Assembly (NCBI GenBank): GCA_001799695.1
Contig: MGTY01000022.1
Span: 4,031 to 68,030 of the forward strand
Reading direction: 5' to 3'
Length of the DNA: 64,000 bases
Source: Elusimicrobia bacterium GWA2_69_24
GTDB lineage: Bacteria; Elusimicrobiota; Elusimicrobia; UBA1565
Position 1 is the first letter of the stretch, and each line of letters opens with the position of its first letter. The notes under the pieces were generated by a model. The model was not told the DNA's origin, searched no databases, and saw only the letters and a list, made by a program, of their open reading frames with translations. Positions 15,812-49,196 of the stretch are shown in pieces. Both the position numbers and the translations under genes were made by a program.

Positions 15812-15837
15812 CACGCTGAGACGGGCACGCTGAGACG
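15812..15837. repeat. tandem 12-bp direct repeat (cacgctgagacg, twice) immediately upstream of the operon start
   Basis: Two perfect copies separated by 2 nt, ending 3 nt before the GTG at 15841. The local sequence is lower in GC. Confidence 0.4.
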
Positions 15838-15840
15838 AGT

Positions 15841-16347: not shown

Positions 16348-16351
16348 GGAT

Positions 16352-17476: not shown

Positions 17477-17496
17477 GGCGGTTCCCTTTTGGTGAG

Positions 17497-18572: not shown

Positions 18573-18613
18573 GAGAGAGCTTCCGGGGCTGAGCTTCGGC
18601 AGTACCCGCCGGC

Positions 18614-21459: not shown

Positions 21460-22652
21460 AGGATCTCGCGATCGCGATCTCGGTCTACGACAAGTTCCAG
21501 GACGTGAAGCTCCTCAGCGACCTGTTCAGGAAGAACTGGCCCGGAAGCTATGATCTCGTCGTCTGCTCTTCCCATCCGCAGGCGGCGTCCCGTCTCGCGG
21601 ACTGCGACATCGACGAGCTGCTGTCGACGGAGAACCTGCCGATGGACGGCCCGGGATCGAGCGACCCACGGGTGTCGCCACGGGCCCGGCTGTGGGTCCG
21701 GGTCATCGACAGCATCCGGAAGGCGTGTGGGCGGTGCGCCGACCGGGCCGAGGCGCCGTTCACGCTCCATCTCCACGCGGACGCGTGCCCGCTGTCCTGG
21801 CCAAAGCTCAGGCGGCTCGCGGAGCGGATGCAGCGTCACGGCAAGTGGTTCGCGGCGCGCGGCGAGGGCTTCGGCTTCTACGCGGTCAACGAGCCCGTCG
21901 GCGGCTTCGACGACATGTTCTTCGTGGTCGACAACGCCTTCGCGCGGGACACGGGCTTCTGGGACTTCGATCCGTTCGACTTCTTGCCCCACAAGATCTC
22001 GATCCACGGGGTGCTCGCGATCCTGGGGCTGACGAGGGTCGGCATCCGGCGCTTCTATCACTACGGGAGCCACACCCGGGCCGTGTACTGGGACGGCAAG
22101 CCGGTCGTGCTGTATCCGCTGAACTCGGCGCATCCGATGTATTTCGACCCCGAAAACTGCTTCCTCCACATTCACGAGAGCGGTTTCCGCGGCGACCTCG
22201 GCGTCCGCCTCAAGGCGCACTACCTGGCGCGGCACGAGGTGACGCGCGGCCAGCACGTGGAGGAATTCCTCGCGAAGTGGCAGACGCCCGAGCCGGAGCT
22301 CTTCGGTGCCCTGGCGGCGAGCGAGGCGGGGCTCCGTCGCTTCTTCCTGCGCCGAGGGCTCTCGCCCGCGGTCTATGGCCGGAACTTCGACCAGATGGCG
22401 GCGTTGCAGGCGGCGTATCTGGGACTGCCGGCCGCCGGCAAGGGCCGGTGGCTCGGCCGCATGCACGCCCAGCAGGCGAAAGGACTGGTCTCGACGTTGG
22501 TGCGCCGGCGGTTCATGCGCGGCCGGATCTTCCGGGACCGCTACCTGGACACGGTCTGGCCCGATCGCCTGGACGACCTGTACGAGTCCGCCTTCGCCTC
22601 GACGGCGCGCGAAGTGAGGGACTTCTCGCTCGACGGCGCGGAATTTCCTTGA
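21456..22652 (+). CDS. hypothetical protein, tandem paralog 2
   Basis: GTGA overlap with the paralog 1 stop. Homologous to paralog 1 over the N-terminal 230 aa, with a longer C-terminal region. Confidence 0.55.
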   Translation: MKDLAIAISVYDKFQDVKLLSDLFRKNWPGSYDLVVCSSHPQAASRLADCDIDELLSTENLPMDGPGSSDPRVSPRARLWVRVIDSIRKACGRCADRAEAPFTLHLHADACPLSWPKLRRLAERMQRHGKWFAARGEGFGFYAVNEPVGGFDDMFFVVDNAFARDTGFWDFDPFDFLPHKISIHGVLAILGLTRVGIRRFYHYGSHTRAVYWDGKPVVLYPLNSAHPMYFDPENCFLHIHESGFRGDLGVRLKAHYLARHEVTRGQHVEEFLAKWQTPEPELFGALAASEAGLRRFFLRRGLSPAVYGRNFDQMAALQAAYLGLPAAGKGRWLGRMHAQQAKGLVSTLVRRRFMRGRIFRDRYLDTVWPDRLDDLYESAFASTAREVRDFSLDGAEFP

Positions 22653-22653
22653 C

Positions 22654-23295
22654 ATGAGCGCAGCCCGTTCTTTACACGAGAAGACAGGCATGACGGCAGA
22701 CTTCACGGAGCGCGCCAGGGCGTACCTGGCGGACGCCCGCGACACGCTGGACCGCATTCCCGTCCAGGTGGTGGAGAAGATCTTCCACGTCCTGTGCGAT
22801 GCCTACCGCGAGGACCGGCAGGTGATCCTGATGGGCAACGGCGGATCCGCCGCGCTGGCTTCGCACTTCGCCGTGGACCTCGGGAAAGGGACGGCGGCCG
22901 CCGGTCGCCGGCGACTGCGTGCCGTCTCGATCGTGGACAACACGCCGGTGATGACCGCGTACGCCAACGACCTGTCGTACGCCGACGTCTTCTCCGAGCA
23001 GATTCGCGCGCTCGCGAAGCGGGGCGACGTCGTCTTCGGCATCTCGGGCAGCGGCAGCTCGCCGAACATCCTGAAGGGGCTCGCGGCTGCCCGTGAAGTG
23101 GGGGCGACCACCGTGGTCCTGACCGGCTACCAGGGGGGCAAGGCCATCGACATGGCCGACGTGACGTTGGTGGTGCCCTCCGACGACATGCAGCACATCG
23201 AGGACTGCCACCTGGCGCTGACGCACCTGTACATGCAGGCGATGCGCGAGGTCGTTCGCGAGTCGCCGATCACCGAGCCGGGCCGCTGCCAGTAA
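22654..23295 (+). CDS. gmhA: D-sedoheptulose-7-phosphate isomerase (SIS domain, GmhA-like)
   Basis: VILMGNGGSAALASHFAVDL and GISGSGSSPNI SIS motifs, about 200 aa. An alternative start lies at ATG 22690. Confidence 0.8.
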   Translation: MSAARSLHEKTGMTADFTERARAYLADARDTLDRIPVQVVEKIFHVLCDAYREDRQVILMGNGGSAALASHFAVDLGKGTAAAGRRRLRAVSIVDNTPVMTAYANDLSYADVFSEQIRALAKRGDVVFGISGSGSSPNILKGLAAAREVGATTVVLTGYQGGKAIDMADVTLVVPSDDMQHIEDCHLALTHLYMQAMREVVRESPITEPGRCQ

Positions 23296-23371
23296 CGGGG
23301 ATCCTCGCCGCGCCTTTGGCGACGTGCGAACATGGTCGCGTGCGAATGACCGCCGTAACGCTCCGTGCCGT

Positions 23372-24373
23372 ATGAAGACGATCGTCACTGGCGGCGCTGG
23401 GTTCATCGGCAGTCACCTGGTCGACCGCCTCCTCAGCGACGGGCACGACGTGACGGTGCTGGACAACTTCAGCACCGGGCGCCCGCAGAATCTCGCCCAG
23501 CACGGAAACAATCCCCGCTTGCGGGTTGTCGAGGCCGACGTGGGGGACTTCGTCGCGATCCGACCCTGTTTCCACGATGCGGAATGGGTCTTTCATCTGG
23601 CCGCGCTTGCCGACATCGTTCCCTCGATCGAGCACCCGCTCGACTATCACCGCGCCAACGTGGACGGCACCGCGAACGTGCTGGAGGCCGCTCGAGCCGT
23701 CGGCGCCCGGCGTGTCCTCTACACCGCCTCGTCGTCCTGTTACGGGATCGCCGACGTGTACCCGACGCCGGAGACGGCGCCGGTTCGTCCCCAGTACCCG
23801 TACGCGCTCACGAAGTACGTGGGTGAGCAGTATGCGCTCCACTGGGCGCAGGTGTACCGGCTGCCCGTCGCGTCGCTGCGGCTCTTCAACGTGTACGGCC
23901 CACGATCCCGGACGTCGGGCACGTACGGGGCGGTGCTGGGCGTGTTCCTCGCCCAGAAGCTCGCCGGCAAGCCGTTCACCGTCGTCGGCGATGGCACTCA
24001 GGTGCGGGATTTCACCTTTGTGACGGACGTCGCGGATGCGTTCCTCACGGTGGCGACTTCCGACGTCCTGGGAGAGGTGTTCAATGTCGGCTCCGGCCAG
24101 CCGGCGAGCGTCAATCGCCTCGTCGAGCTGCTGGGTGGTGAGGCGGTGCACATCCCGAGGCGCCCCGGCGAGCCCGACCGGACGCACGCCGACATCGGCA
24201 AGATCCAGCGCCAGCTCGGCTGGCGCCCGAAGGTGTCGATCGAGGAGGGCCTAGGCAGGGTCCTCTCCCGCATCCAGGACTGGCGCGAGGCGCCGGTGTG
24301 GACACCGGAGTCGATCGCCGTGGCGACCCACGACTGGTTCCGTTACCTGGGGTCCGCAGTGACGGGGGGATGA
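23372..24373 (+). CDS. NAD-dependent epimerase/dehydratase (UDP-sugar 4-epimerase / UXS-like)
   Basis: MKTIVTGGAGFIGSHL Rossmann motif and YALTKYVGE (YxxxK). Confidence 0.8.
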   Translation: MKTIVTGGAGFIGSHLVDRLLSDGHDVTVLDNFSTGRPQNLAQHGNNPRLRVVEADVGDFVAIRPCFHDAEWVFHLAALADIVPSIEHPLDYHRANVDGTANVLEAARAVGARRVLYTASSSCYGIADVYPTPETAPVRPQYPYALTKYVGEQYALHWAQVYRLPVASLRLFNVYGPRSRTSGTYGAVLGVFLAQKLAGKPFTVVGDGTQVRDFTFVTDVADAFLTVATSDVLGEVFNVGSGQPASVNRLVELLGGEAVHIPRRPGEPDRTHADIGKIQRQLGWRPKVSIEEGLGRVLSRIQDWREAPVWTPESIAVATHDWFRYLGSAVTGG

Positions 24374-24381
24374 CGTGAGTG

Positions 24382-25917
24382 ATGGCGACCAATAGCGTCG
24401 ATCGCAAAGTCTGCGCGTTCGCCGAGTTGCAGGACCGGGTGACGAGCGCGCGAGCCGAGGGCAAGCGAATCGTCCTCTGCCATGGCGTCTTCGACCTGAT
24501 CCATCCGGGCCATGTCCTGCACTTCAAGGCGGCGCGCCAGCACGGCGACCTTCTCGTCGTCACGGTCACGCCGGACCAGTTCGTGAACAAGGGGCCCGGC
24601 CGCCCGGTGTTCAACCAGCGCCTGCGCACGGAGACGATCGCGGCCTTCGAGTTCGTCGACTATGTGGCGCTGAATCTCTGGCCCACCGCCGTCGAGACGA
24701 TCGAGCGGCTGCGGCCGGACGTCTACGTCAAGGGAAGCGAGTACGCCGACCCGGCCCGGGACCTGACGGGCATGATCCTTGCCGAAGAGCGGATGGTCCA
24801 GGCCGTCGGCGGCGCGATCGTGTTCACGACCGAGGAGACCTTCAGCTCAAGCAGTCTCATCAACCGTTACTTCAGCAGTCTGCCGACGCCAACGAACGAA
24901 TACTTACGGGGCTTCCGGCAGCGCCATGGGGCCGAGGAGGTGCTGGGGGCTCTGCGGACGCTCAGCGACCTCGACGTGTTGGTCGTCGGCGAGGCGATCC
25001 TCGACGAGTACTGCTACTGCGTCCCCCTGGGGAAAGCTCCCAAGGACACGATGATCGCCACGAGGTACGTGTCCGAGGACCGGTTCGCCGGCGGGTCGCT
25101 GGCCGTGGCCAATCACCTGGCCGGGGTCTGCCGGTCGGTCACGCTGGTGACGTGCCTCGGCACCGACGATGCCCAGGCGGACTTCGTGCGCTCGAAGCTC
25201 AGTGCGAACGTCACCTTGCTGGCGGCCCGGACGACGGACCGTCCGACGATCGTCAAGCGCCGGTACGTCGAAACGACGTTCCTCGCAAAGCTGTTCGAGG
25301 TCCAGTCGCTCGAGGACCGGCCCATCCAGCCCAAGACCGAGCGCGAGATCGTGGAGGCCCTCGGCGATCGCCTGGCCAAGCACGACTTGGTGGTGGTCAC
25401 CGATTTCGGGCACGGGGTGTTCACCGAAGAGATCCGGAAGCTCCTCTGCTCGTCGACCGCGTTCCTCGCTGTCAACACGCAGACGAACAGCGCGAACCTC
25501 GGATTCAACTCGGTGACGAAGTATCAGCGGGCGGATTACGTCTGCCTGCACGAAGGCGAGCTGAAGCTCGCCCTGCGCGCGCAATACGGTGACGTCCGGG
25601 ACCTCGCGACCCGGATCCGAGCCGAGCTGGCCGCCGGCAGCGTGATGGTTACGCGGGGCCCGAACGGCTCCATGCTGTTCACCGAGGACGGGGCGGTGCA
25701 CGAGACGCCAGCCCTGTCGCTCCGGGTGGTGGATCGCACGGGGGCCGGCGACGCGCTCTTTGCGCTCACCGCCCCGTGCGTGTTCCGTGGTGCCGCGCCC
25801 GAGGTGGTCGGTTTCGTGGCGAACTGCGTCGGCGCCCTCGCCGTCGAGATCATCGGTAACCGGGAGCCGGTCGCGCCCGCGGCGTTGAAGAAGTTCATGG
25901 CCCACCTGCTGATGTGA
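24382..25917 (+). CDS. bifunctional heptose-7-P kinase / heptose-1-P nucleotidyltransferase, with domains in the reverse order to E. coli HldE
   Basis: N-terminal cytidylyltransferase-like domain (CHGVFDLIHPGHVLHF). C-terminal PfkB/ribokinase-family domain (TGAGDALFA). E. coli HldE is kinase-N / transferase-C. Confidence 0.7.
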   Translation: MATNSVDRKVCAFAELQDRVTSARAEGKRIVLCHGVFDLIHPGHVLHFKAARQHGDLLVVTVTPDQFVNKGPGRPVFNQRLRTETIAAFEFVDYVALNLWPTAVETIERLRPDVYVKGSEYADPARDLTGMILAEERMVQAVGGAIVFTTEETFSSSSLINRYFSSLPTPTNEYLRGFRQRHGAEEVLGALRTLSDLDVLVVGEAILDEYCYCVPLGKAPKDTMIATRYVSEDRFAGGSLAVANHLAGVCRSVTLVTCLGTDDAQADFVRSKLSANVTLLAARTTDRPTIVKRRYVETTFLAKLFEVQSLEDRPIQPKTEREIVEALGDRLAKHDLVVVTDFGHGVFTEEIRKLLCSSTAFLAVNTQTNSANLGFNSVTKYQRADYVCLHEGELKLALRAQYGDVRDLATRIRAELAAGSVMVTRGPNGSMLFTEDGAVHETPALSLRVVDRTGAGDALFALTAPCVFRGAAPEVVGFVANCVGALAVEIIGNREPVAPAALKKFMAHLLM

Positions 25918-25957
25918 GCGAGGACGGTCGGTCGGAGCGACCGCGAAGGAGAATAGC

Positions 25958-26959
25958 GTGGTGAGCGACCTGCGGCAGGTGCTGGTGACCGGAGGAGCGG
26001 GCTACGTGGGCTCGGTGCTGGTTCCCCGACTTCTCGAGCGCGGTTTTCGCGTCCGGGTGCTCGATCTGTACCTGTTCGGGGATCACGTCCTCCGGGCGGT
26101 CAAGGATCATCCTGGGCTCGAGGAGATCAAGGGGGACATCCGGGACCAGGCCCTGCGGAGACAAGCGCTGCGAGGCTGTGACGCGGTCATCCACCTGGCC
26201 TGTATCTCGAACGATCCGAGTTTCGCGCTGGACCCGGAGCTGGGCAAGTCCATCAACTACGACGCGTTCATCGACCTCGTGGACGCCGGGCGCGACGCCG
26301 GCGTCCGGCGGTTCATCTACGCCTCATCCTCGAGCGTGTACGGCATCAAGGACGAGCCGAACGTGACCGAGGAGCTGCCGCTGAAGCCACTCACCGACTA
26401 CTCGAAGTACAAGGCGATGTGCGAGGACGTGCTGCTCGCGCGGCGGGCGCCCGGTTTCGAGACCGTCATTTTTCGCCCCGCGACCGTCTGTGGCTACTCG
26501 CCCCGGCTCCGACTCGACCTCACGGTGAACATCCTGACGAACCACGCCGTCCACAACCACGTCATCAAGGTGTTCGGCGGCCAGCAGATGCGTCCCAACA
26601 TCCACATCGACGACATGGCCGACCTCTACGTCGAGGCGCTCGGGTGGCCGGCGGCGAAGGTCGACGGGGCCGTCTACAACGTCGGTTACGAGAACCGTCG
26701 GGTCATCGAGATCGCCGAGATGGTCCGAGGTGTCGTGGGCGGCGACGTGCGCATCGTGACGACGCCGACCGACGACAACCGCTCGTACCACATTTCCTCG
26801 GACCGGATCAAGCGCGCGCTCGGCTTCGAGGCGCGCCGCACGATCACGGACGCGACGCGCGATCTCGTGCGGGCGATGCGCGAGGGCCAGGTCCCCGACG
26901 CGATGTCCGACGAGCGTTACTACAACATCAAGCTGATGCAGCGGGTGAAGCTGCGTTGA
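25958..26959 (+). CDS. NAD-dependent epimerase/dehydratase (possible heptose epimerase)
   Basis: VLVTGGAGYVGS Rossmann motif and YSKYKAMCE (YxxxK). GTG start. Confidence 0.75.
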   Translation: MVSDLRQVLVTGGAGYVGSVLVPRLLERGFRVRVLDLYLFGDHVLRAVKDHPGLEEIKGDIRDQALRRQALRGCDAVIHLACISNDPSFALDPELGKSINYDAFIDLVDAGRDAGVRRFIYASSSSVYGIKDEPNVTEELPLKPLTDYSKYKAMCEDVLLARRAPGFETVIFRPATVCGYSPRLRLDLTVNILTNHAVHNHVIKVFGGQQMRPNIHIDDMADLYVEALGWPAAKVDGAVYNVGYENRRVIEIAEMVRGVVGGDVRIVTTPTDDNRSYHISSDRIKRALGFEARRTITDATRDLVRAMREGQVPDAMSDERYYNIKLMQRVKLR

Positions 26960-27783
26960 GGGACGGCGAGGGTCTCGAAGAGCTCGACCGGATCGCGAGA
27001 GAGATCCGTGGCAGGGTCGTCGAGATGTCGCACCGGGCGAAGACGCCGCACCTCGGGTCGGCCCTCTCCTGCGTGGATATCCTCGTGGCGGTCTACTGGG
27101 CGACGCTCAGAATCGACCCGCGAAACCCGAGGGACCGGGAGCGGGACCGGTTCATCCTGAGCAAGGGCCACGCGGTGAGCGCGCTGTACGCCGCGCTGGC
27201 CTACCGGGGCTTCTTCCCGGTCGCACAACTCGAGACCTTCAACGAGGCGGGGAGCGCTCTGGCGGAGCAACCGAGCCCGGCGTGCGTGGCGGGCCTCGAG
27301 CTGGCGACGGGATCGCTCGGCCACGGGCTCTCGGTGGGGCTGGGCATGGCCTTTGCCGGTCGCCTGGCCGGGCTGCGGCATCGCGTGGTGGTCCTGATGA
27401 GCGATGGCGAGTGCAACGAAGGGTCGGTGTGGGAGGCGGCCCTGCTCGGGGCATCGCTGAAGCTCGGGCAGGTGGCGACGATCGTCGACTACAACAAGTG
27501 GCAGGCCACCGGGCGCAGCAACGAGATCATGGCGCTCGCACCGCTCCGGGAGAAGTGGGAGGCATTCGGATGGAGCGCCTACGAGGTGGATGGTCACGAT
27601 CTCAAGGCGCTCGTCCAGGTCCTCGACAACGTCCCCGACGGCAGCGGCAAGCCGGTGGCCGTCGTGGCGCACACCGTCAAGGGTAAGGGCGTGTCCTTCA
27701 TGGAGGACGACAACAACTGGCACTATCGGAGCCCGACCGCGGAGGAGGTCCGGCAGGCCCGGATCGAGCTCGATCTCGCATGA
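26956..27783 (+). CDS. transketolase, N-terminal (ThDP-binding) subunit of a split transketolase
   Basis: TTGA overlap start. ...HLGSALSCVDILVAVY, GHGLSVGLGMA, and the ThDP motif MSDGECNEGSVWEA. Confidence 0.75.
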   Translation: MRDGEGLEELDRIAREIRGRVVEMSHRAKTPHLGSALSCVDILVAVYWATLRIDPRNPRDRERDRFILSKGHAVSALYAALAYRGFFPVAQLETFNEAGSALAEQPSPACVAGLELATGSLGHGLSVGLGMAFAGRLAGLRHRVVVLMSDGECNEGSVWEAALLGASLKLGQVATIVDYNKWQATGRSNEIMALAPLREKWEAFGWSAYEVDGHDLKALVQVLDNVPDGSGKPVAVVAHTVKGKGVSFMEDDNNWHYRSPTAEEVRQARIELDLA

Positions 27784-28715
27784 GGGACGCGTTTGCGGCC
27801 GAGATCACGGAGCTGGCGACGGAGGACGCGCGCCTCGTCCTGCTTTCGGGCGACATCGGCAACCGGCTCTTCGAGCGCTACAAGCAGCGCCATCCCGACC
27901 GGTTCCTCAACTGCGGCGTCGCCGAGGCCAACATGATCAGCATGGCGGCCGGCATGGCCCTCTCCGGGTTGCGCCCGGTCGCGTACACGATCGCGCCCTT
28001 CGTCACCACGCGCTGCCTGGAGCAGATTCGCGTGGATCTCTGCTACCACAACCTGCCTGTCGTCATCGTTGGCGTGGGCGCTGGCCTCTCCTACGCGTCC
28101 CTGGGGGGTACCCATCACGCGTGTGAGGACATCGCGCTGCTGCGCGTGCTGCCCAACATGAGCATCGTGTGTCCTGGCGACGCGATGGAGGTACGGCTGG
28201 CGATCCGGGCGGCCCTGGGGCAGGAGCGGCCAATCTACATCCGCCTCGGGAAGAAGGGCGAGCCGGCCGTCCACGAGCGCCCGCCGGAGTTCGTGATCGG
28301 CAAGGGGATCGTGCTGCGGCAGGGCAGCGACGTCTGCCTCCTGAGCACGGGCACCGTGCTGCCGCTGGCCCTCGCCGCGGCAACGCGACTCGAGCGCGAC
28401 GGCGTGTCAGCGCAGGTCGTCAGTTTCCACACGGTCAAGCCGCTCGACGAACGCCTGCTGACCGATGTCGCCGGCCGTATTCCGCTCGTCGTCACGATCG
28501 AGGAGCACAGCGTTCTCGGCGGGCTCGGGGGGAGCGTCGCGGAGTGGCTGGCGGATGGGCCGAGCCGCGGCGTGCGCCTCCTCCGCATCGGCACCGCCGA
28601 CGAGTTCATGCACGGCGGAGGTGAGCAGGAGCACGCGCGGGAACACTTCGGGCTCACTGCGGAGAAGGTCGCGGAGCGCACGCTGGCGACGCTGGGCGTG
28701 ATCGGGCGCCGGTAG
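27780..28715 (+). CDS. transketolase, C-terminal (pyrimidine-binding) subunit
   Basis: ATGA overlap. NCGVAEANMISMAAGMA and the C-terminal domain. 311 aa. Confidence 0.8.
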   Translation: MRDAFAAEITELATEDARLVLLSGDIGNRLFERYKQRHPDRFLNCGVAEANMISMAAGMALSGLRPVAYTIAPFVTTRCLEQIRVDLCYHNLPVVIVGVGAGLSYASLGGTHHACEDIALLRVLPNMSIVCPGDAMEVRLAIRAALGQERPIYIRLGKKGEPAVHERPPEFVIGKGIVLRQGSDVCLLSTGTVLPLALAAATRLERDGVSAQVVSFHTVKPLDERLLTDVAGRIPLVVTIEEHSVLGGLGGSVAEWLADGPSRGVRLLRIGTADEFMHGGGEQEHAREHFGLTAEKVAERTLATLGVIGRR

Positions 28716-28718
28716 GGG

Positions 28719-29759
28719 ATGCGGACGCTCGCCGCCGTGCTGGTCGAGACGGGGAGGCCGCTCGTCCTGGCGGAGCTCGAGATACCGCCGCTCAAGCCCG
28801 GGCAGGTGCTGGTCGAGGTCGGCGTCAGCGGCGTGTGCCACACGCAGCTCCTCGAGTGCGACGGGCACCGCGGTGCGGACCCGTTTCTGCCGCATTGCCT
28901 CGGCCACGAAGGGAGCGGCATCGTCCGCGAGGTGGGTCCGGGGGTGGCGAAAGTCGCGCCGGGCGACCGCGTGGTCCTGTCGTGGATGAAGGGCTCCGGC
29001 GCTGACGTGGCGGGCACGGTATACCGCTGGGAAGGGCGTGCCGTCAACGCCGGGGGCATCACCACCTGGAGCCGCCACGCGGTGATCAGCGAAAACCGAC
29101 TCACGCCGCTGCCGGCCGGCGTGCCCCTGCGCGAGGCGGCGCTGCTCGGCTGCGCGGCGCCGACCGGGCTCGGCGCCGTGCTCAACACCGCGCGACCGCG
29201 CCCCGGCGCGACCCTTGCGGTGTTCGGCTGTGGCGGGATCGGCCTCTGTGCCGTCGCCGGCGCAGTGATCGCAGGATGCGCGCGAGTGATCGCCGTGGAT
29301 CTGAACCAGGAGAAGCTCGACCTCGCCAGACAGATGGGCGCGACCGATGCCATCCGGGCCGACCTCACGGAGCCCGTGGCCGAGATCACCCGCTTGTGCG
29401 CGGGAGGTGTCGACGTCGCGATCGAGGCCACGGGCCGTCCGAGCGCCATGGTCCAGGCCTTGCACAGCGTGCGGGGGCAGGGCGGCACAGCCGTGGTCGT
29501 CGGCAACGCGCGCCACGGCGAGCGCGTCGAGATCGACCCGCGCCAGCTCAATCTCGGCAAGCGCCTCCTGGGCACGTGGGGCGGGGACAACTCGCCGGAC
29601 CACGACTTCCCTCGTTATGCCGAGTTGCTGGCCGGCGGCAGGCTCCCCCTCGGCCCGCTTGTCGGGCGGACCTATCGTCTGGCCGACATCAACCAGGCCG
29701 TGGAGGATCTCCGGGCGGGGATCGCCGTGCGGCCGCTCGTCGACCTGGGACTCGGCTGA
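28719..29759 (+). CDS. Zn-dependent alcohol dehydrogenase (MDR family)
   Basis: CLGHEGSGIV zinc ligands, GCGGIGLCAV Rossmann motif. 346 aa. Confidence 0.8.
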   Translation: MRTLAAVLVETGRPLVLAELEIPPLKPGQVLVEVGVSGVCHTQLLECDGHRGADPFLPHCLGHEGSGIVREVGPGVAKVAPGDRVVLSWMKGSGADVAGTVYRWEGRAVNAGGITTWSRHAVISENRLTPLPAGVPLREAALLGCAAPTGLGAVLNTARPRPGATLAVFGCGGIGLCAVAGAVIAGCARVIAVDLNQEKLDLARQMGATDAIRADLTEPVAEITRLCAGGVDVAIEATGRPSAMVQALHSVRGQGGTAVVVGNARHGERVEIDPRQLNLGKRLLGTWGGDNSPDHDFPRYAELLAGGRLPLGPLVGRTYRLADINQAVEDLRAGIAVRPLVDLGLG

Positions 29760-29768
29760 GGGCGGACC

Positions 29769-30392
29769 GTGGTGATCGGGATCGACTTCGACAACACCGT
29801 CGTCTGCTACGACGAGGTCTTCCACCGGACGGCGCGCGGCTGGGGCCTGATCCCCGTGAACGTCCCGACGGGCAAGGGCATGGTCCGCGACTACCTGCGC
29901 GAACGCGGGAGGGAAGACGACTGGACGCGACTTCAGGGCCACGTGTACGGTGCGACGATTCTCGAGGCCCCTGCCTTCCCGGGCGTCCTCGAGTTCCTCG
30001 CGGCCTGCAGAGACCGGCGTATGGCCGTCCACATCATCAGTCACAAGACACTCCGGCCGGTCCTCGGCGAGCCCCGCGATCTGCATCGCGCCGCCCACGA
30101 GTGGCTCGAGGCGCGGGGATTCTACGACACGGCGCGCACGGGGCTGTCACGGGAGGACGTCCACTTCGAGCTGACGAAAGAGGCCAAGCTCGCGCGCATC
30201 GGACGTGTCGGGTGCACGCATTTCGTGGACGATCTGCCGGAGTTCCTCCTCGATCCCGGTTTCCCGGTGGGCGTCCGGCGGATCCTGTTCGACCCGAACG
30301 GTGGCCATGTGGGGCCGGCGGATCTCGATCGCGCCGCGTCCTGGAGCGAGATCGGCGACCTCGTGCTGCGCGCCGGCTCGGCGTCACGGTGA
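29769..30392 (+). CDS. HAD-superfamily hydrolase (candidate sugar-phosphate phosphatase, GmhB-like role)
   Basis: N-terminal VIGIDFDNTVV (DxDxT-type motif I). About 207 aa. GTG start. Confidence 0.5.
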   Translation: MVIGIDFDNTVVCYDEVFHRTARGWGLIPVNVPTGKGMVRDYLRERGREDDWTRLQGHVYGATILEAPAFPGVLEFLAACRDRRMAVHIISHKTLRPVLGEPRDLHRAAHEWLEARGFYDTARTGLSREDVHFELTKEAKLARIGRVGCTHFVDDLPEFLLDPGFPVGVRRILFDPNGGHVGPADLDRAASWSEIGDLVLRAGSASR

Positions 30393-31417
30393 ACCCGGAG
30401 ACGCTGCGAGAGGTGGCCGCGGGGCTCATTGCGCCGCTCGGCCTTCGCGGGGAGACGAGGCTCGAACCGCTGCGGGGCGGCGCCAACAACCGCGTGTTTC
30501 GGCTCGTCGTGGGCGACCGAACGTTACTCTTCAAGGCGTACTTCCAGCACCGGGACGATCCGCGGAACCGGCTCGAGAGCGAGTACGCCTTCACCACATT
30601 CGCGTGGCAGCGCGGGGTACGTCGGGTGCCGCAGCCGCTGGCGCTCGACCCGGTGCACGGTGTGGCGCTTTACGAGTATGTCGAGGGTCGGCCTGTCGCG
30701 CCCGGGGAAGTCAACGAGGCCCTCGTCCGCCAGGCGCTGGACTTCTACCAGGAGTTGAACGGCCACCGGGACCGAGCCGAGGGCGCCGGGCTCCCGCTCG
30801 CCTCGGAGGCGTACTTCACGCTCGCGGCCCATCTGCGCGGCGTGGAAGGGCGAGTGCGGCGGCTGGGGAAGCTGGACGACGCGGGAGACGTGGGCCGCGC
30901 GGCGGCGCGCTTCGTCGCCGCGGACTTGACGGAAGCCTGGGCCCGCATCGCGGCGCTGGTACGCGACGGGGCGAAGAGGCTCGGCCTGCGCCTCGACCGG
31001 GAGCTCGCCCCGGCCGCCCGCTGTCTCTCCCCGTCGGATTTCGGCTTCCACAACGCGATCCTCGGGCGCGACGGCCGCCTCAGATTCGTGGACTTCGAGT
31101 ATGCCGGCTGGGACGACCCGGCGAAGCTGGTCTGCGACTTCTTCTGCCAGGAGGCCGTGCCGGTGCCGGAGACGCACTACGAGTGGTTCGCCGGCGAGGT
31201 GGTCCGCGACCTGCCCGAGCCGGAAGAGCAGCGGGCGCGAGTGGACCTGCTGCGTCCCATCTACAGGATAAAATGGTGCTGCATCCTGCTGAACGAGTTC
31301 CTCCCGCTGGCGCGGGAGCGCCGCCGGTTCACGCGGCGGGCCGAGGATGAGCGCGCGCGGAAGGCGGTGCAGCTGGGGAAGGCCCGCCGAGCACTTCTGC
31401 GTGCGGAGAGCGCATGA
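30389..31417 (+). CDS. aminoglycoside-phosphotransferase/choline-kinase-family kinase (candidate sugar kinase)
   Basis: GTGA overlap start. Brenner-type catalytic loop SPSDFGFHNAI and a FVDFEYAGWDD (DFE) motif. Confidence 0.65.
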   Translation: MNPETLREVAAGLIAPLGLRGETRLEPLRGGANNRVFRLVVGDRTLLFKAYFQHRDDPRNRLESEYAFTTFAWQRGVRRVPQPLALDPVHGVALYEYVEGRPVAPGEVNEALVRQALDFYQELNGHRDRAEGAGLPLASEAYFTLAAHLRGVEGRVRRLGKLDDAGDVGRAAARFVAADLTEAWARIAALVRDGAKRLGLRLDRELAPAARCLSPSDFGFHNAILGRDGRLRFVDFEYAGWDDPAKLVCDFFCQEAVPVPETHYEWFAGEVVRDLPEPEEQRARVDLLRPIYRIKWCCILLNEFLPLARERRRFTRRAEDERARKAVQLGKARRALLRAESA

Positions 31418-32406
31418 GCACGATCGTGGTCCTGGGCGCGAACTCGTTCTCCGGGCAGGATTTCGTCGACCTGCTCCTGGACGATCCGGCGTTGACCGTG
31501 ATCGGGGTGAGCCGCTCGCCGGAGCGATCGGCGCTCTTCCTCCGGTACAAGCTCAGGGAGAACCTCTTGCGGTACCGGTACGTCCAGCTCGACATGAACC
31601 GGCAAATGCCGGCGCTGCTCGATCTGCTCGACGCCGAGCGCCCCGAGGCCGTCGTGAACTTCGCCGCGCAAAGCGAGGTCGCGCCGAGCTGGGAGCACCC
31701 GGAGCACTGGTACCAGACCAACTGTGTCGCGCTGGCCTCGCTGGTGAACCATCTGCGGCAGCGCACGTACCTGCGGCGGTATGTCCACATCTCCTCGCCC
31801 GAAGTCTACGGGACCTGCGTGGGAGAGGTTCGTGAGGATGCCCCGCTGCGACCGAGCACGCCGTACGCTGCTTCGAAGGCGGCGGCCGACCTACTGCTCC
31901 TGGCATACGTCAAGGAGTTCGGGTTCCCCGCCACGTTCGTGCGGGCGACGAACGTGTACGGAGCGCGCCAGCAGCTCTTCAAGATCATCCCGCGATCGGT
32001 GATCTTCGTACGGCTGGGCAAACGGATCGAGCTGCACGGGGGTGGCGCCGCGGTGAAGTCGTACATCCACGTCCGCGACGTCTCCCGTGGCGAGTTGGCG
32101 ATCCTTCGCGAGGGGCGCGCCGGGGAGATCTATCACCTGGCCCCGTCGCAGGGGGTCTCGGTCCGGGAGGTCGTGCGGGCGATCTGCGACCGACTGGGGC
32201 GGCGCCTCGAGGACTGCATAGTCACGGTGGGCGAACGTCCGGGCCAGGATGCGGCGTACGTCATCGACTCGACCCGGGCGCGCACCGAGCTCGGCTGGAA
32301 GCCGCAAGTCGCCCTCGACGAGGGGCTCTCCGACGTCGTCGCGTGGGTCGGCGACTACTGGGACGAGATCGTGCGGCAGCCCCTCACCTACGCGCACAAA
32401 GCCTGA
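31414..32406 (+). CDS. NAD-dependent epimerase/dehydratase (NDP-sugar 4,6-dehydratase-like)
   Basis: ATGA overlap. VLGANSFSGQDFV Rossmann-like motif and YAASKAAAD (YxxxK). Confidence 0.8.
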   Translation: MSTIVVLGANSFSGQDFVDLLLDDPALTVIGVSRSPERSALFLRYKLRENLLRYRYVQLDMNRQMPALLDLLDAERPEAVVNFAAQSEVAPSWEHPEHWYQTNCVALASLVNHLRQRTYLRRYVHISSPEVYGTCVGEVREDAPLRPSTPYAASKAAADLLLLAYVKEFGFPATFVRATNVYGARQQLFKIIPRSVIFVRLGKRIELHGGGAAVKSYIHVRDVSRGELAILREGRAGEIYHLAPSQGVSVREVVRAICDRLGRRLEDCIVTVGERPGQDAAYVIDSTRARTELGWKPQVALDEGLSDVVAWVGDYWDEIVRQPLTYAHKA

Positions 32407-32417
32407 CAGGGGTAACC

Positions 32418-33080
32418 GTGGCGTACGTGGACTTCATCTCGCGGGTGCACAAGAGCACGAAGCGCGATTACCTCGAGCGCGTGTGCGTGCACGACAAGGC
32501 GGAATGCGCGGAGATTGCCGTCAAGTTCGGCAAGGACTACTGGGACGGAGACCGGAAGCACGGCTACGGCGGGTACGGCTACGATGGGCGCTGGCGAGTC
32601 GTGGCGGAAGACATCGTGCGCCACTACAAGCTCCCGGCCGACGCGCGCATCCTCGACGTGGGCTGTGGCAAGGGCTTCCTGCTCTACGAGTTCACTCAGG
32701 TGCTTCCAGGGGCGCGGGTGGCGGGCATCGACATCTCCGACTACGGCGTCAGGAACGCGAAGGAGGAGGTTCGCCCGCTCCTTCAGATCGCGAGCGCGCC
32801 GGCGCTCCCGTTCCGCGACCGATCCTTCGACCTCGTGATCTCCATCCTCACTCTCCACAACCTGTACACCTACGACCTCTGGAAGGCGCTCGAGGAAATC
32901 GAACGGGTGGGCAGGGGTGCGAAGTACGTGGTCGTCGAGACCTACCGGAACGAGCGCGAGAAGGTCAATCTGCTCTACTGGCAGCTGACCTGCCGCGCGT
33001 TCCACACCCCGGCCGAATGGGCGTGGGTGTTCGCGAAGTCGGGGTACACCGGCGACCACTCGTTCATCGTCTTCGAGTAG
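32418..33080 (+). CDS. class I SAM-dependent methyltransferase
   Basis: ILDVGCGKGFLL motif I and DLVISILTLHNL. GTG start, the first start codon after the upstream stop. Confidence 0.65.
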   Translation: MAYVDFISRVHKSTKRDYLERVCVHDKAECAEIAVKFGKDYWDGDRKHGYGGYGYDGRWRVVAEDIVRHYKLPADARILDVGCGKGFLLYEFTQVLPGARVAGIDISDYGVRNAKEEVRPLLQIASAPALPFRDRSFDLVISILTLHNLYTYDLWKALEEIERVGRGAKYVVVETYRNEREKVNLLYWQLTCRAFHTPAEWAWVFAKSGYTGDHSFIVFE

Positions 33081-33104: not shown

Positions 33105-34349
33105 TCAGACGATCCGGGCTCGCGGCAGCGGAAGGATGAAGTGGCCGCCCTGCTCGAGGTAGCGCTGGTTCTTTGTCAGGATCGGGTCGGCGTACTGCCA
33201 CACCAGGACGATCACGAACTCCGGCCTCCGCTCGTAGAGGACGGCGGGCGACAGCACCGGCAGGTGAAGCCCCGGGCTGAAGAGGGCGTGCCGCGCCGGA
33301 TTGTCGTCCACGAGGTAGTCGAGGAAGGGTCCGAGCTCGAAGTTGTGGATCAGGGTGGTGACTGTCGCCGACGCGCCGTAGCCGGCAATGGCCTTGTTCG
33401 CGGATCGAAGCGGCCGGAGCAAGCGGTGGAGATCGGTCTTGATCGCAAGCAGCTTCGCGGTGAGCTCCCTGAACACGTCGGGACGATCCAGTCCCATCCG
33501 CGTCTCGAGCGCCAGCAGCTCGTCGATGATCGGCGCCGGCCGCCGACGTGCCCCGAGGCGCTGGACGAATCCGCGGATCGAGCCCCCCTTGGTCGGCAGG
33601 CGCATGACGTCGAACAATTCCAGGCCGTGCCGCGAGAAGAACGCGACCAGCGGCTTGATCGAGTGATAGCACAGGTGCTCGTGATAGATCGTGTCGAAGA
33701 GGAGCTTCTCGACGATGTCCACGAGGTAGGAGACCTCGAAGACGAACACGCCCTCCGGCGAGAGGAGCTCGGCGACGCCGTCCGCCATGTCCGGCAGGTT
33801 GTCGGAGTGCGCGAAGACGTTGTTCGCGGTCACGAAGGCGGCCGCCCCGCGCTCCGCCTTGATGCGACGCGCCAGGCTCGAGGTGAAGAACGCGGGCAAG
33901 GTCTCGAGGCCAGCCCTGGTGGCCTGTTCCGCGATGACCGAGGCCGGATCGATGCCGAGGACGCGTAACCCCCTATCACGGAGGATCCGGAGCAGCGTGC
34001 CGTCGTTGCTCCCGATGTCGACCGCCAGAGGGGGTGACGGCGCGGGGAAGCGGTCCAGGAGGTCGTCCACATACTGGCGGAAGTGCTCGACGAGACCGAG
34101 CGAGACCGAGGTGCTGTAGATGTACTCACCGAAGAGCGCCTCGGGATCCACGACGTCGAGTAACTGGACGTGGCCGCAGGATCCGCACAGGTAGAGGTCC
34201 AGCGGATAGGACGCCTGTGTCTGGCTCGTGCGCTCCGCGGGCACGTAGGCGTCGGCGATGGGCGACGGCTTGTACGGGACCACCAGCTCGACGCTGCGGG
34301 AGTCGCAGAGGCGGCATGACGCGCGGTGGGCGACGGGCGCGCGCGTCAC
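33105..34349 (-). CDS. NDP-sugar C-methyltransferase-family protein (Zn-ribbon + MT + C-methyltransferase C-terminal domain; TylC3/NovU-like)
   Basis: N-terminal CRLCDS...CGSCGHVQL zinc ribbon, SAM-binding AVDIGSNDGTLL, conserved C-terminal domain. GTG start overlaps the SDR stop (GTGA). Confidence 0.7.
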   Translation of the reverse strand: MTRAPVAHRASCRLCDSRSVELVVPYKPSPIADAYVPAERTSQTQASYPLDLYLCGSCGHVQLLDVVDPEALFGEYIYSTSVSLGLVEHFRQYVDDLLDRFPAPSPPLAVDIGSNDGTLLRILRDRGLRVLGIDPASVIAEQATRAGLETLPAFFTSSLARRIKAERGAAAFVTANNVFAHSDNLPDMADGVAELLSPEGVFVFEVSYLVDIVEKLLFDTIYHEHLCYHSIKPLVAFFSRHGLELFDVMRLPTKGGSIRGFVQRLGARRRPAPIIDELLALETRMGLDRPDVFRELTAKLLAIKTDLHRLLRPLRSANKAIAGYGASATVTTLIHNFELGPFLDYLVDDNPARHALFSPGLHLPVLSPAVLYERRPEFVIVLVWQYADPILTKNQRYLEQGGHFILPLPRARIV

Positions 34350-35083
34350 AGCCCGGTGAGCTTGCGGGCCAGCGCTTCCTGCGACAGGAGCGAGACGCCG
34401 CCGTCCACGAGGATCTCCTGGCCCGTCACGAACGACGCCTTCTCGCTGCACAGGAAGGCGATCACATTGGCGGTCTCGAGGGCCGTGCCCATCCGTCCCA
34501 GCGGGATGATCTTCTTGAAGAGACTGTTGAGGTCCTGGTTCTTCGAGTAGAAATCACGGTTCTCTTCCTTCACCATCGTGCACGGCGAGACGCAGTTGAC
34601 CCTGATCCCGCGCGGGCCGAGCTCGACCGCGTAGTAGCGCGCCATCTGGCCGAGGGCGGCTTTCGCCACGTGATAACCGACGGGCTGCCCCTCGGCGATG
34701 AAGCGACCGACGACGGAGCTGACGAGGACGATCGAGCGGTCTCCGGTACCGCCGAAGGCACCGGCGAGCGTCTCGACGATCGTCCGGGTCGCGCTCAGGG
34801 ACGTCGCCAGCTCGCCGCCCCAGCGGTCGCCCTCTCCCTTGAAGCGCTGAAGGAGCACGAGGCTGTTCAGCTCGCCGTTGCGGGAGACGATCTCTCCCAG
34901 GAGGCGGACCAGCTCGCGCTCGTCCGTGAGATCGCCCGCCCAGAAGTGGGTGCCCGGGAGACGTCGATCGGCGTCGGCGGGAGCCCGTCGGCCCATCACC
35001 GAGACGGTGTGCCCCTGCGCCGAGAAGAGGCGCACGACCTCGCGCCCGATCCCGCGGGTACCGCCGACGATCACGCTGTGCAT
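34346..35083 (-). CDS. SDR-family oxidoreductase
   Basis: VIVGGTRGIGREV Rossmann motif and YHVAKAAL (YxxxK). 245 aa. Confidence 0.8.
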   Translation of the reverse strand: MHSVIVGGTRGIGREVVRLFSAQGHTVSVMGRRAPADADRRLPGTHFWAGDLTDERELVRLLGEIVSRNGELNSLVLLQRFKGEGDRWGGELATSLSATRTIVETLAGAFGGTGDRSIVLVSSVVGRFIAEGQPVGYHVAKAALGQMARYYAVELGPRGIRVNCVSPCTMVKEENRDFYSKNQDLNSLFKKIIPLGRMGTALETANVIAFLCSEKASFVTGQEILVDGGVSLLSQEALARKLTGL

Positions 35084-35114
35084 GGCCCGTGCTGGTTCCT
35101 GGACGGTGGCTCGC

Positions 35115-36317
35115 TCACGGCACGAGGGAATTGGGCCGTCCCGGGAAGATGGACGCGAAGGTCCCGCCGCTCTCGAGGAAGCCCTGGCTGTGTGCGATCA
35201 CTCGCGCCTCGCTCTCCTGGCTGAGGCTCAGAAGGCACAGCTTGATTCCCCGCTCGACGAGCTCGGCCGAGGCGAGGATCGGCAGGCGCGAGCCAGGCAT
35301 GAACAGGCCGCGCTTCCGGGGATCGTCGTCCGCGACGAAGTCGATGTGGTCTCGCGCACCCAGGAAGTTGATCCAGGCGCAGCTCAAGTGACCGGCGCCG
35401 AAGACGGCGATCCCGCCGCGCGCGCGCCGGAACTCGGTCAGGGCGTCGTTGGCCCGGCGGCGGTACGCCGGGAAGCGCCGAGCATACGTCTGGCCCAGGG
35501 CCCTGGTGCTCTCGGCGATGCTCGAGTCCGGCACCTGCGACCGGGCCGCCGGCGTCGAGCGGACGATCGCCACGAGGGAATTCTCGTGCGAGTACGGATA
35601 GAGCGCGTACCCGACGGCCGAGAGCCCCCAACACCCCACGGCCTGCCGGAGCAGGTCCTCGGTGAAATAGAGCACGTGCTCTTCCCAGGGCATCGTGTAG
35701 TCGGCGCGGCGCAGCGCCGGACCGCAGTCGGGAGCCTCGAGCACGACGTAGCCGTCCGCCTTGACGAGCCGCCGCAGGGCGGCGACGAACGTCGCGGGCT
35801 CGTGGGCATGCTCGACGACGTGCCGGGCGACCAGAACATCCGCGGCGCCGCGCCGCTCGGCGATGGCGCCGGCCGTTTCCGGGGTGAGGTAGCGCTGAAC
35901 GGTCTCCGGGCCGGCCCCGTGGTCGTCTGCGCCCAGGTCGTGCTCGACGTCGATGCGCCAGGTGTGCGAGAGTCCACGCTTGCGAAAGCGCTCCAGGGTC
36001 GAATCGTCCTTCATGCTGATGCCACCCACGACCGAGGTCGGGCTCACCCCGGGGAGTCTGCAGAGTCCGTCCACCAGGTCGTCCAGGTGTCCCTCGGGCT
36101 CGCGGTAGACGATCCAGTCGAACCGCGGCTTGAGCTCGTGCGCCGCGACTGGCGCCAGGAGCTGAACGACGCCGCACGCCCCGCACTGCCCAAGGGTGAA
36201 CGGGAACGCGGCCTCGTCGGCGGTCGGGCTGGACAAAAAGCGGTTGCAGAGCGCATGCTCGCCCAGGTCGAGTAGCGGCTCGACGCGGGCGAGGTGACAC
36301 AATCGGCAAGTGCTCAT
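35115..36317 (-). CDS. second C-methyltransferase-family protein (Zn-ribbon + MT + C-MT domain), paralog of 33105..34349
   Basis: N-terminal CRLCHL...CGACGVVQL zinc ribbon, MT core, and a C-terminal domain with IAVFGAGH. Confidence 0.7.
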   Translation of the reverse strand: MSTCRLCHLARVEPLLDLGEHALCNRFLSSPTADEAAFPFTLGQCGACGVVQLLAPVAAHELKPRFDWIVYREPEGHLDDLVDGLCRLPGVSPTSVVGGISMKDDSTLERFRKRGLSHTWRIDVEHDLGADDHGAGPETVQRYLTPETAGAIAERRGAADVLVARHVVEHAHEPATFVAALRRLVKADGYVVLEAPDCGPALRRADYTMPWEEHVLYFTEDLLRQAVGCWGLSAVGYALYPYSHENSLVAIVRSTPAARSQVPDSSIAESTRALGQTYARRFPAYRRRANDALTEFRRARGGIAVFGAGHLSCAWINFLGARDHIDFVADDDPRKRGLFMPGSRLPILASAELVERGIKLCLLSLSQESEARVIAHSQGFLESGGTFASIFPGRPNSLVP

Positions 36318-36339
36318 GCGACTCGGGTGCCGCTCGTGC

Positions 36340-37227: not shown

Positions 37228-37236
37228 GATATTGAT

Positions 37237-37992: not shown

Positions 37993-38068
37993 GCTGGAGG
38001 ACTGTAGCATATACCACGGAATTATCGGGCGGAAGTGAGGTGGTATATCCTTCCGTCGGGGCCTTGCG

Positions 38069-49183: not shown

Positions 49184-49196
49184 GGCGCGACGCGAG

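Follow-up and report, generated by a model that had tools for sequence, protein, structure and literature searches.

The stretch of DNA described here, which we refer to as the window, comprises 64,000 nucleotides (nt) of contig MGTY01000022.1 from Elusimicrobia bacterium GWA2_69_24 and has a G+C content of ~70%. Genes were called from third-position GC content and open reading frame (ORF) structure, domains were identified by profile searches against Pfam and NCBIfam, and all function assignments are based on homology and synteny. Every gene between positions 16352 and 33080 lies on the + strand, and the interval 22654–33080 of this run is a single tightly coupled operon of eleven genes that are separated by short gaps or joined by 4-nt overlaps (table 1). 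The operon encodes a GmhA-like isomerase, three extended short-chain dehydrogenases/reductases (SDR334, SDR333, and SDR330), an HldE-like fusion protein of reversed domain order (rHldE), a transketolase (TK) divided into two subunits (TK-N and TK-C), a zinc-dependent alcohol dehydrogenase (Zn-ADH), a HAD-like phosphatase, an APH-like kinase, and a methyltransferase. The rHldE and TK proteins are 100% identical to proteins of GWA2_69_24, which is a metagenome-assembled genome. The genes and domains that a sequence-only reading of the window had listed for this interval are all confirmed at the same positions, by the Pfam and NCBIfam searches and, for the HAD-like protein, by motifs and homologues, and the four overlaps it had named can be read in the sequence as TTGA at 26956, ATGA at 27780, GTGA at 30389, and ATGA at 31414. 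The methyltransferase gene likely starts at 32418 rather than at 32343 because its homologues are 220 amino acids (aa) long.

Table 1. Genes of the operon and of the adjoining accessory module in the window
Feature	Coordinates	Strand	Evidence
GmhA-like SIS sugar-phosphate isomerase, 213 aa	22654..23295	+	Pfam SIS_2 2.2e-18
GalE-like extended SDR (SDR334), probable nucleoside diphosphate (NDP)-sugar epimerase	23369..24373 (ORF opens 23324)	+	Pfam Epimerase 1.8e-61
Reverse-order HldE-like fusion (rHldE)	24379..25917	+	CTP_transf_like (PF01467) aa 34–161, PfkB (PF00294) aa 199–497
Extended SDR (SDR333), candidate NDP-heptose C4-dehydrogenase	25958..26959	+	Closest structure 6vo6/6vo8
Split transketolase N subunit, TK-N (thiamine diphosphate [ThDP]/PP domain)	26956..27783	+	Transketolase_N 1.1e-37
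Split transketolase C subunit, TK-C (Pyr and C domains)	27780..28715	+	Transket_pyr, Transketolase_C
Zn-ADH, class III/P-like	28719..29759	+	ADH_N, ADH_zinc_N
HAD-superfamily-like phosphatase, 207 aa, DxDxT	29769..30392	+	Motifs and weak Pfam matches of homologues
APH/choline-kinase-fold small-molecule kinase, 342 aa	30389..31417	+	Pfam APH (PF01636) 8.7e-12
RmlB-like extended SDR (SDR330), NDP-sugar 4,6-dehydratase-like	31414..32406	+	GDP_Man_Dehyd 4.7e-45
Class I S-adenosylmethionine methyltransferase, 220 aa	32418..33080	+	Methyltransf_11, _31, _25
Accessory module: C-methyltransferase 33105–34451, SDR 34346–35083, C-methyltransferase-like 35115–36317	33105..36317	-	Methyltransf_13, _14

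About nine to eleven of these sugar-pathway genes form a widely conserved cassette around an unusual two-part TK. Scanning one genome per species with an alignment of the APH kinase as anchor, we confirmed at least 561 cassette loci in species-level genomes from about a dozen phyla, including those of Microcoleus, Gemmataceae, and Desulfomonile, and we fetched 80 loci for comparison. Synteny was mapped by tblastn of the window proteins against these 80 loci with 10 kb of flank each, a search to which non-homologous replacements are invisible. Thirty-nine of the loci extend for at least 8 kb on each side. In these, the HAD-like and APH genes are always present (100%), followed by the RmlB-like SDR and the methyltransferase (92% each), TK-N and TK-C (90%), the ADH and the HldE-like fusion (87% each), and SDR333 (82%); the C-methyltransferase (41%), the GmhA-like isomerase (36%), and SDR334 (31%) are less frequent. 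All three TK contexts that we opened share one gene order, namely SDR, TK-N, TK-C, ADH, HAD-like protein, APH kinase, RmlB-like SDR, and methyltransferase, with an HldE-like gene nearby in two of the three. The occurrence of the TK is closely matched by that of rHldE: of the 53 loci that extend for at least 8 kb upstream, 41 encode both proteins, eight encode neither, four encode the TK only, and none encodes rHldE only. The loci with neither are mostly from Gemmataceae, and a divergent TK lies a few kilobases downstream where the sequence continues. A SIS isomerase is found near the TK in 14 of 35 well-flanked loci. A second cassette subtype (loci L088 and L090) has the order HAD–APH, TK-N, TK-C. 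An arrangement in which the same genes keep one order across dozens of genomes and many phyla is far beyond chance. Public annotations of the cassette proteins are generic ("hypothetical protein," "thiamine kinase-like enzyme," "transketolase"), and we found no published description or characterization of the cassette in the literature that we searched.

The split TK has the full set of PP, Pyr, and C domains in Pfam searches together with the ThDP/Mg motif and the donor-site histidines. The closest solved structure to TK-C is the split TK of Carboxydothermus hydrogenoformans (PDB 6yaj, 211.9 bits), and relatives of TK-N that are 67–85% identical occur across Acidobacteria, Poribacteria, Desulfomonile, and others. 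TK-N and TK-C score 258.1 and 189.9, respectively, against the NCBIfam model NF004559, the cutoff of which (488) is set for the full-length enzyme. Across 56 loci, TK-N conserves the motifs that contribute to the ThDP/Mg and donor sites (PHLGS, SKGH, SDGECNEGS, DYNKWQ, and NNWHY). The acceptor site is different. In canonical TKs, Ser385, His461, Asp469, and Arg520 (Escherichia coli numbering) bind the acceptor phosphate and the C2-hydroxyl. The acceptor-site segments of 6yaj read DLSKST, THAGLTVGEDGASHQ, and IRLGR, and their counterparts in the window TK-C read DIGNRL, VGAGLSYASLGGTHH, and IRLGKK. If the TK-C motifs correspond to the E. coli positions as we presume from the motifs themselves rather than from superposition of structures, then Ser is replaced by Arg (GDIGNRLF), His by Gly and Asp by Leu, Asn, or Gly (VGxGxGLSYAxLGxTHH versus THAGLTVGEDGASHQ), and Arg by Lys (IRLGKK). 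These three motifs of TK-C are conserved in 57 cassette loci, and an Arg and Lys-rich pocket is kept in the TK subtype of the window. A change of His100 to Gln in TK-N was considered as a defining feature and rejected, as about half of the family has His there.

When 1.84 billion proteins are clustered at 50% identity, the canonical TH..GEDG..HQ motif is found in only one of the 150 best-matching representatives, and nearly all share GxGxG…(T/S)HH; given this shared pattern, we place the window TK in a large non-canonical TK-like clade. The proposal of the sequence-only reading that this TK is dedicated to its gene cluster gains support from the non-canonical active-site signature and from a context that is exclusively one of glycan genes. 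That reading would have been undermined by a TK nearly identical to the housekeeping tkt and found in the same context in genomes lacking the glycan genes; instead, the close relatives that we sampled are all in the glycan cassette.

The genes preceding the TK resemble those of nucleotide-activated heptose synthesis. rHldE carries both domain types of HldE in one chain, and its translation contains the motifs HPGH and GAGD. Residues 6–163 align to positions 317–470 of the 475-position HldE profile and residues 194–504 align to the kinase-domain profile rfaE_dom_I. The alignment positions show directly that the nucleotidyltransferase domain precedes the kinase domain, whereas in HldE the kinase domain is N-terminal and the nucleotidyltransferase domain C-terminal, a reversal that had been noticed in the translation before any search. 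The possibility that this protein is an ordinary RfaE with a misread domain order fails given that its relatives in Omnitrophota, Planctomycetota, and Elusimicrobiota are numerous and uniform, with ~508 aa, the same two domains, and 54–73% identity. Together they make up a large family with rHldE as its founding type. rHldE scores below the NCBIfam equivalog cutoffs of NF008454 (159.9 vs. 521), TIGR02198 (rfaE_dom_I, 112.8 vs. 345), and TIGR02199 (rfaE_dom_II, 103.4 vs. 181.5), and its N-terminal domain matches the HldE adenylyltransferase domain (103 bits) better than glycerol-3-phosphate cytidylyltransferase (35 bits). The best NCBIfam match of the GmhA-like protein is gmhA (TIGR00441), with 127.7 bits against a cutoff of 209.45. 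A heptose-type nucleotide-sugar module, as first suggested from the letters of the sequence, is supported, with a SIS isomerase and with PfkB and nucleotidyltransferase domains that are nearest to HldE among the NCBIfam models. SDR334 has UDP-glucose 4-epimerases as its closest solved structures (7ys8, 219.7 bits), and its homologue is encoded directly upstream of the rHldE gene in loci L001–L004 and L088–L090.

The two remaining SDRs and the Zn-ADH are candidates for modification of the activated sugar. Among solved structures, SDR333 is closest to 6vo6/6vo8 (144.9 bits), with the next structure at 121.5 bits. We take 6vo6 to be Cj1427 of Campylobacter jejuni, a GDP-heptose C4-dehydrogenase, in line with the depositor's molecule name. 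Cj1427 oxidizes GDP-D-glycero-α-D-manno-heptose to the 4-keto sugar with no dehydration (PMC10680097). The stop codon of SDR333 overlaps the start of TK-N, and SDR333 usually immediately precedes TK-N across the loci. The structures closest to SDR330 are dTDP-glucose 4,6-dehydratases, and SDR330 falls short of RmlB in both motif and score: it lacks the Asp–Glu dehydration pair, with Pro at the position of the catalytic Asp and Glu kept in its SSPEVYG motif (YAASK is present), and it reaches 210 bits against the TIGR01181 cutoff of 365.1. Alignments of the Zn-ADH with PDB structures omit ~25 residues of the structural-zinc loop and retain the catalytic Cys/His/Cys ligands; in sequence, it resembles class III/P Zn-ADHs without the structural-zinc lobe. 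A natural fusion of TK-C and Zn-ADH (P0362, 658 aa), with 61% and 58% identity to its two counterparts in the window, suggests that the ADH acts next to the TK. Two small genes without Pfam matches, encoding proteins of ~268 and ~140–156 aa, follow TK-C in the Microcoleus locus L012 (8111–9377) and in L090 (19586–20805), in which the adjacent Zn-ADH is lacking, and these genes may substitute for the ADH step. On the opposite strand, a convergent operon (33105–39368) encodes two C-methyltransferases (Methyltransf_13/14), three SDRs, and a GT2 glycosyltransferase. The trio of C-methyltransferase, SDR, and C-methyltransferase within it is also found beside the cassette in 21–41% of loci, and its recurrence suggests extra C-methylation of a keto-sugar intermediate.

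The HAD-like phosphatase and the APH-like kinase are the element most tightly linked to the TK in the two divergent cassette subtypes. The 207-aa window protein has no Pfam or NCBIfam match; three of four tested homologues match Pfam HAD weakly, matches to NT5C are likewise weak, and the motifs DFDNT, SHKT, and DD are conserved in more than 70 loci. A structural model built from a two-sequence input has a predicted local distance difference test (pLDDT) score of 69.7, and the fold search with it is not significant (best E value 0.012, to a HAD hydrolase). We rejected an assignment as GmhB because canonical GmhB-type HADs are additionally present beside rHldE in the Microcoleus locus L012 and in L007, and because the 207-aa protein is physically tied to APH and TK rather than to rHldE. 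The HAD-like gene adjoins the APH gene in 76 of the 80 loci. The two are fused in P0328 (551 aa) and in a 546-aa gene of L090, and L089 encodes a 577-aa APH product at the edge of the locus; given the fusions, we propose that phosphatase and kinase act as a unit. The AlphaFold2 model of the APH-like kinase (pLDDT 93.9) matches choline kinases and APHs in Foldseek with a probability of 1.0. Its neighbors are generic and include NahK and MtnK, with template modeling scores of ~0.5–0.6; no Foldseek neighbor is specific, so that structure does not narrow the substrate. Two segments, SPSDFGFHN and DFEYAGWDDP, are near-invariant and contain the catalytic D-x-x-x-x-N loop and the DFx Mg-binding motif, and all four tested members have weak matches to the Pfam Choline_kinase model. 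A Kennedy-type phosphocholine or phosphoethanolamine reading of the kinase, methyltransferase, and cytidylyltransferase was set aside given that NDP-sugar SDRs are core members of the cassette and the nucleotidyltransferase domain is HldE-like.

A group of related loci encodes a different ThDP enzyme in place of the TK. In L001–L003, which contain rHldE and no TK, an E1α/E1β pair of the pyruvate type is encoded among homologues of SDR333, SDR330, the methyltransferase, and the ADH, and no HAD–APH pair is present. E1 pairs of the α-KADH2 type introduce C2 branches on deoxy-keto sugars, and split-gene TKs have been proposed to transfer a hydroxyacetyl group to a keto sugar when miharamycin and amipurimycin are made, with 13 further split-TK candidates, all from Streptomycetes (PMC12247030, a 2025 review). 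In the cassette, the split TK likewise belongs to a nucleotide-sugar cluster and neighbors an oxidoreductase, as seen in the overlap of SDR333 and TK-N and in synteny in 82–90% of loci.

Based on these observations, we tentatively hypothesize, at what we regard as slightly less than an even chance, that the TK moves a C2 ketol onto a carbonyl (a C4 ketone or a terminal aldehyde) made on an NDP-heptose, and that the ADH acts at an adjacent step. The GmhA-like isomerase, rHldE, and a phosphatase would convert sedoheptulose 7-phosphate (S7P) to an NDP-heptose, on which an SDR would make a carbonyl: SDR333 would generate a C4 ketone without dehydration or, alternatively, SDR330 would generate a 4-keto-6-deoxy sugar or the Zn-ADH a terminal aldehyde. 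The split TK would load glycolaldehyde, the C2 ketol, from a ketose donor on ThDP and transfer it to this carbonyl to yield a hydroxyacetyl-branched or two-carbon-extended C9 sugar. The Zn-ADH would act directly before or after the TK and most likely reduce the new ketone; the methyltransferase and the two opposite-strand C-methyltransferases would tailor the product, which the surrounding glycosyltransferase, ABC-exporter, and Wzi genes would then use. For the HAD-like and APH-like proteins, an obligate pair, we conjecture from their tight linkage to the TK and their absence from the E1-type loci that they may act on a phosphate carried by the new primary hydroxyl or by the TK substrate.

We favor C2 transfer onto a nucleotide-linked sugar because the TK lacks the canonical sugar-phosphate-binding residues across its family while the ThDP and donor residues are kept, because the gene preceding the TK in 82% of loci is nearest to an NDP-heptose C4-dehydrogenase, because the GmhA-like isomerase, which would convert a ketose phosphate to an aldose phosphate, is nearby in 36% of loci, and because the sister loci hold E1α/E1β, a class known for C2-branching of NDP-keto-sugars. 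Further support comes from the fixed order of the cassette across phyla, from the co-variation of the TK with the NDP-sugar-forming rHldE, and from the coupling of ADH to TK in the fusion P0362. The broader proposal, that the cassette produces a new and widespread class of cell-surface sugars, namely TK-made C9 heptose derivatives (hydroxyacetyl- or dihydroxyethyl-branched, or extended) with the kinase and phosphatase adding and removing a phosphate handle, is in our estimation rather doubtful.

Several points weigh against C2 transfer onto an NDP-heptose. In vitro use of an NDP-keto-sugar has been shown for no TK (PMC12247030). The margin of 6vo6/6vo8 over other SDR structures in the comparison with SDR333 is modest (145 vs. 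121 bits), and we only infer that the sugar is a heptose, because rHldE, the GmhA-like protein, the TK, and SDR330 all score below NCBIfam equivalog cutoffs. It is difficult to fit both a C4-dehydrogenase-like and a 4,6-dehydratase-like SDR into a single linear route. The scheme gives the HAD–APH pair no clear role, and sugar-phosphate chemistry would accommodate it better.

This last point leads to the strongest rival, which we consider unlikely but worth retaining and which parallels the lincosamide octose route: the TK would add C2 to an aldose phosphate (e.g., heptose 7-phosphate or hexose 6-phosphate, perhaps a longer or manno-configured one) to form a C8 or C9 ketose phosphate, which GmhA-like isomerization followed by the kinases, phosphatase, and nucleotidyltransferase would convert to an NDP-octose or NDP-nonose for tailoring by SDRs and methyltransferase. 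Aldehyde acceptors are the natural chemistry of TK, and such a pathway would give a place to the two kinases (PfkB and APH), HAD phosphatase, SIS isomerase, and nucleotidyltransferase that share the operon, as well as to the HAD–APH pair beside the TK, which is sometimes fused. It is also compatible with the scores of the GmhA-like and HldE-like proteins, the substrate of which may not be a standard heptose, and with the Arg and Lys-rich pocket; the loss of His461 and Asp469 could equally fit a longer acceptor or the opposite configuration at C2. However, the TK has lost the His and Ser that canonically bind phosphate, a SIS isomerase is near it in only 14 of the 35 well-flanked loci, and the Zn-ADH would have no obvious step and yet is fused to TK-C in P0362. 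The coupling of SDR333 to the TK and the E1α/E1β sister loci would be left unexplained. The sequence-only reading had proposed a pathway of this kind, with the TK building or extending a heptose or octose as a sugar phosphate, and the lost acceptor residues, the low frequency of GmhA (36%), the SDR333 coupling, and the E1 sister loci lead us to disfavor it relative to C2 transfer onto a nucleotide-linked sugar.

Improbable, in our view, is a cassette with two products, in which rHldE, GmhA, and the SDRs would make a modified NDP-heptose and the TK, ADH, HAD-like, and APH-like proteins a small phospho-polyol or phospho-ketol (e.g., a C4 or C5 polyol phosphate) that a cytidylyltransferase-type enzyme would activate for attachment to the glycan, in the manner of the decoration pathways for CDP-ribitol, CDP-glycerol, or phosphocholine. 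The choline/ethanolamine-kinase fold of the APH-like kinase, with its Choline_kinase matches, and the membership of the rHldE N-terminal domain in the PF01467 cytidylyltransferase family are consistent with this division of labor, but that domain is nearer to the HldE adenylyltransferase than to glycerol-3-phosphate cytidylyltransferase. Several Gemmataceae loci have ADH–HAD–APH–SDR330 and no TK of the close type or rHldE within 10 kb, yet these loci carry the divergent TK a few kilobases away; similarly, the separate NTP_transf_3 gene upstream in the window is compatible with two products but is not conserved in other loci. The nine genes travel as one cassette across phyla. Finally, it is highly improbable, and largely refuted, that the split TK is a normal pentose-phosphate enzyme that boosts S7P for heptose synthesis: although it has the full transketolase domain set, a functional split TK as its closest structure, and an S7P-using GmhA in its operon, every cassette member has other residues in place of the canonical acceptor and phosphate ones, the sampled close relatives are all in the glycan cassette and none is in a central-metabolism context, the TK co-occurs with HAD–APH and ADH and fuses with ADH, and GmhA is not nearby in 64% of loci. 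Simple S7P supply is ruled out by the membership of the TK in a clade whose acceptor site is non-canonical, and we reject a housekeeping role on this active-site signature and the exclusive glycan context.

The remainder of the window provides a context for the operon. A Wzi capsule-assembly outer-membrane protein (2998–4725, -) and a PMT_2-type glycosyltransferase (40900–42891, +) indicate that the whole window is a cell-surface polysaccharide locus of a diderm. The + strand run of glycan genes opens with a RuBisCO-like protein of 374 aa (16352–17476; PF00016, 144.6 bits) that scores below every NCBIfam cutoff, including those for type III RuBisCO (188 vs. 497), the enolase MtnW (172 vs. 409), and OiaX (149 vs. 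700). A RuBisCO-like protein is unusual in a glycan locus; a link between it and the cassette is unsupported, as the 80 other loci have no counterpart. It is followed in the same run by a MobA-like NTP_transf_3 nucleotidyltransferase (17790–18572), which has no NCBIfam match and is not conserved with the cassette, and by an MsbA-type ABC exporter (18614–20413). Between the exporter and the GmhA-like gene are tandem paralogues (20434–21459 and 21459–22652, +) that are 38% identical and have no Pfam or NCBIfam match and no counterpart in the other loci mapped; they may be novel glycan-processing enzymes. Downstream, 47912–55304 (+) encodes a nonulosonic-acid-style set composed of an SDR, a DegT aminotransferase, a UDP-N-acetylglucosamine 2-epimerase (Epimerase_2), and a protein with CBS and NTP_transferase domains; a 423-aa protein at 47912–49183 has no Pfam match. 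In L088, a similar set with NeuB adjoins the rHldE gene. The translations of two overlapping long ORFs (5575–7131 and 6864–8630, +) are look-alike hydrophobic proteins with similar C-terminal soluble segments. The G+C content dips to 0.63 at 38000–42000 and 0.58 at 56000–58000, compared with ~0.70 elsewhere, and these dips may reflect segments that the glycan locus acquired laterally. In the Microcoleus locus L012, the cassette is followed by TPR-repeat proteins that carry sulfotransferase domains at the C terminus (12809–18658), and the product glycan in Microcoleus may be sulfated.

If C2 transfer onto an NDP-heptose is correct, the cassette TK would be the first TK shown to tailor nucleotide sugars, a role that to date has merely been suggested in the case of two Streptomyces antibiotics, and its product would be an undescribed branched or C9 envelope sugar of Elusimicrobia, Planctomycetes, Verrucomicrobia, Acidobacteria, Omnitrophota, and filamentous cyanobacteria. 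Given the number of species-level genomes with the cassette, this sugar probably occurs widely as a glycan component that has been overlooked. The non-canonical "GxGxG…THH" TK-like clade would then consist of glycan-tailoring enzymes and would be of interest in biocatalysis for making tertiary alcohols and higher-carbon sugars. NDP-heptoses are agonists of innate immunity, and the reverse-order HldE family bears on their diversity. If the sugar-phosphate route is correct instead, the cassette would still encode a new higher-carbon sugar pathway.

The proposed system shares components with several known pathways and differs from each. It resembles the E. coli-type ADP-heptose pathway (GmhA/HldE/GmhB/HldD) in its SIS isomerase, PfkB and cytidylyltransferase-fold domains, and adjoining extended SDR, but differs in the reversed order of the rHldE domains, in scores that are far under the equivalog cutoffs, and in the absence of a canonical GmhB from the window. 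In the lincosamide octose route, the transaldolase LmbR is combined with the GmhA-like isomerase LmbN, the kinase LmbP, the phosphatase LmbK, and the nucleotidyltransferase LmbO. Both systems thus join a central-metabolism-type enzyme of C–C bond formation to a GmhA-like isomerase, kinase, phosphatase, and nucleotidyltransferase; the cassette has a TK rather than a transaldolase, often lacks the isomerase, and has an extra kinase and a Zn-ADH. Split TKs for non-standard substrates include the apulose-4-phosphate TK of D-apiose catabolism and the sulfo-transketolase SqwGH. The former cleaves or forms a tertiary-alcohol center, with a ketone, dihydroxyacetone phosphate, effectively as its acceptor. 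Both are catabolic enzymes of small sugar phosphates or sulfonates outside glycan clusters, and we liken them to the cassette TK by description. The C. hydrogenoformans split TK (6yaj/6yak) shares the two-subunit architecture of the window TK and has the canonical TH..GEDG..HQ, Ser, and Arg acceptor residues, which are replaced in the cassette.

The modification of GDP-heptose for the C. jejuni capsule shares a 6vo6/6vo8-like SDR, an RmlB-like SDR, methyltransferases, and the use of a 4-keto NDP-heptose with the proposed pathway (PMC10680097); it relies on a GHMP kinase and GDP chemistry and has no TK, Zn-ADH, or HAD–APH pair, and the identity of SDR333 to Cj1427 is moderate. The ThDP-dependent C-branching systems, which comprise YerE-like lyases, α-KADH2 pairs (AviB1/B2 and KbDH), and the Mih/Apm split TKs, likewise place a two-subunit ThDP enzyme in a nucleotide-sugar cluster, and as in those systems the window TK is preceded by an oxidoreductase able to make a keto sugar. 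The Mih/Apm-type TKs, which we compared with the window TK by description rather than by sequence, are all from secondary-metabolite clusters of Streptomyces, unlike the cassette, which belongs to loci for cell-surface glycans in, among others, Elusimicrobia, Planctomycetes, Cyanobacteria, and Acidobacteria and includes an obligatory HAD–APH pair. Relative to these systems, the notable novelty of the cassette would be the breadth of ThDP-dependent C2 modification of activated sugars that it implies, together with its kinase/phosphatase pair.

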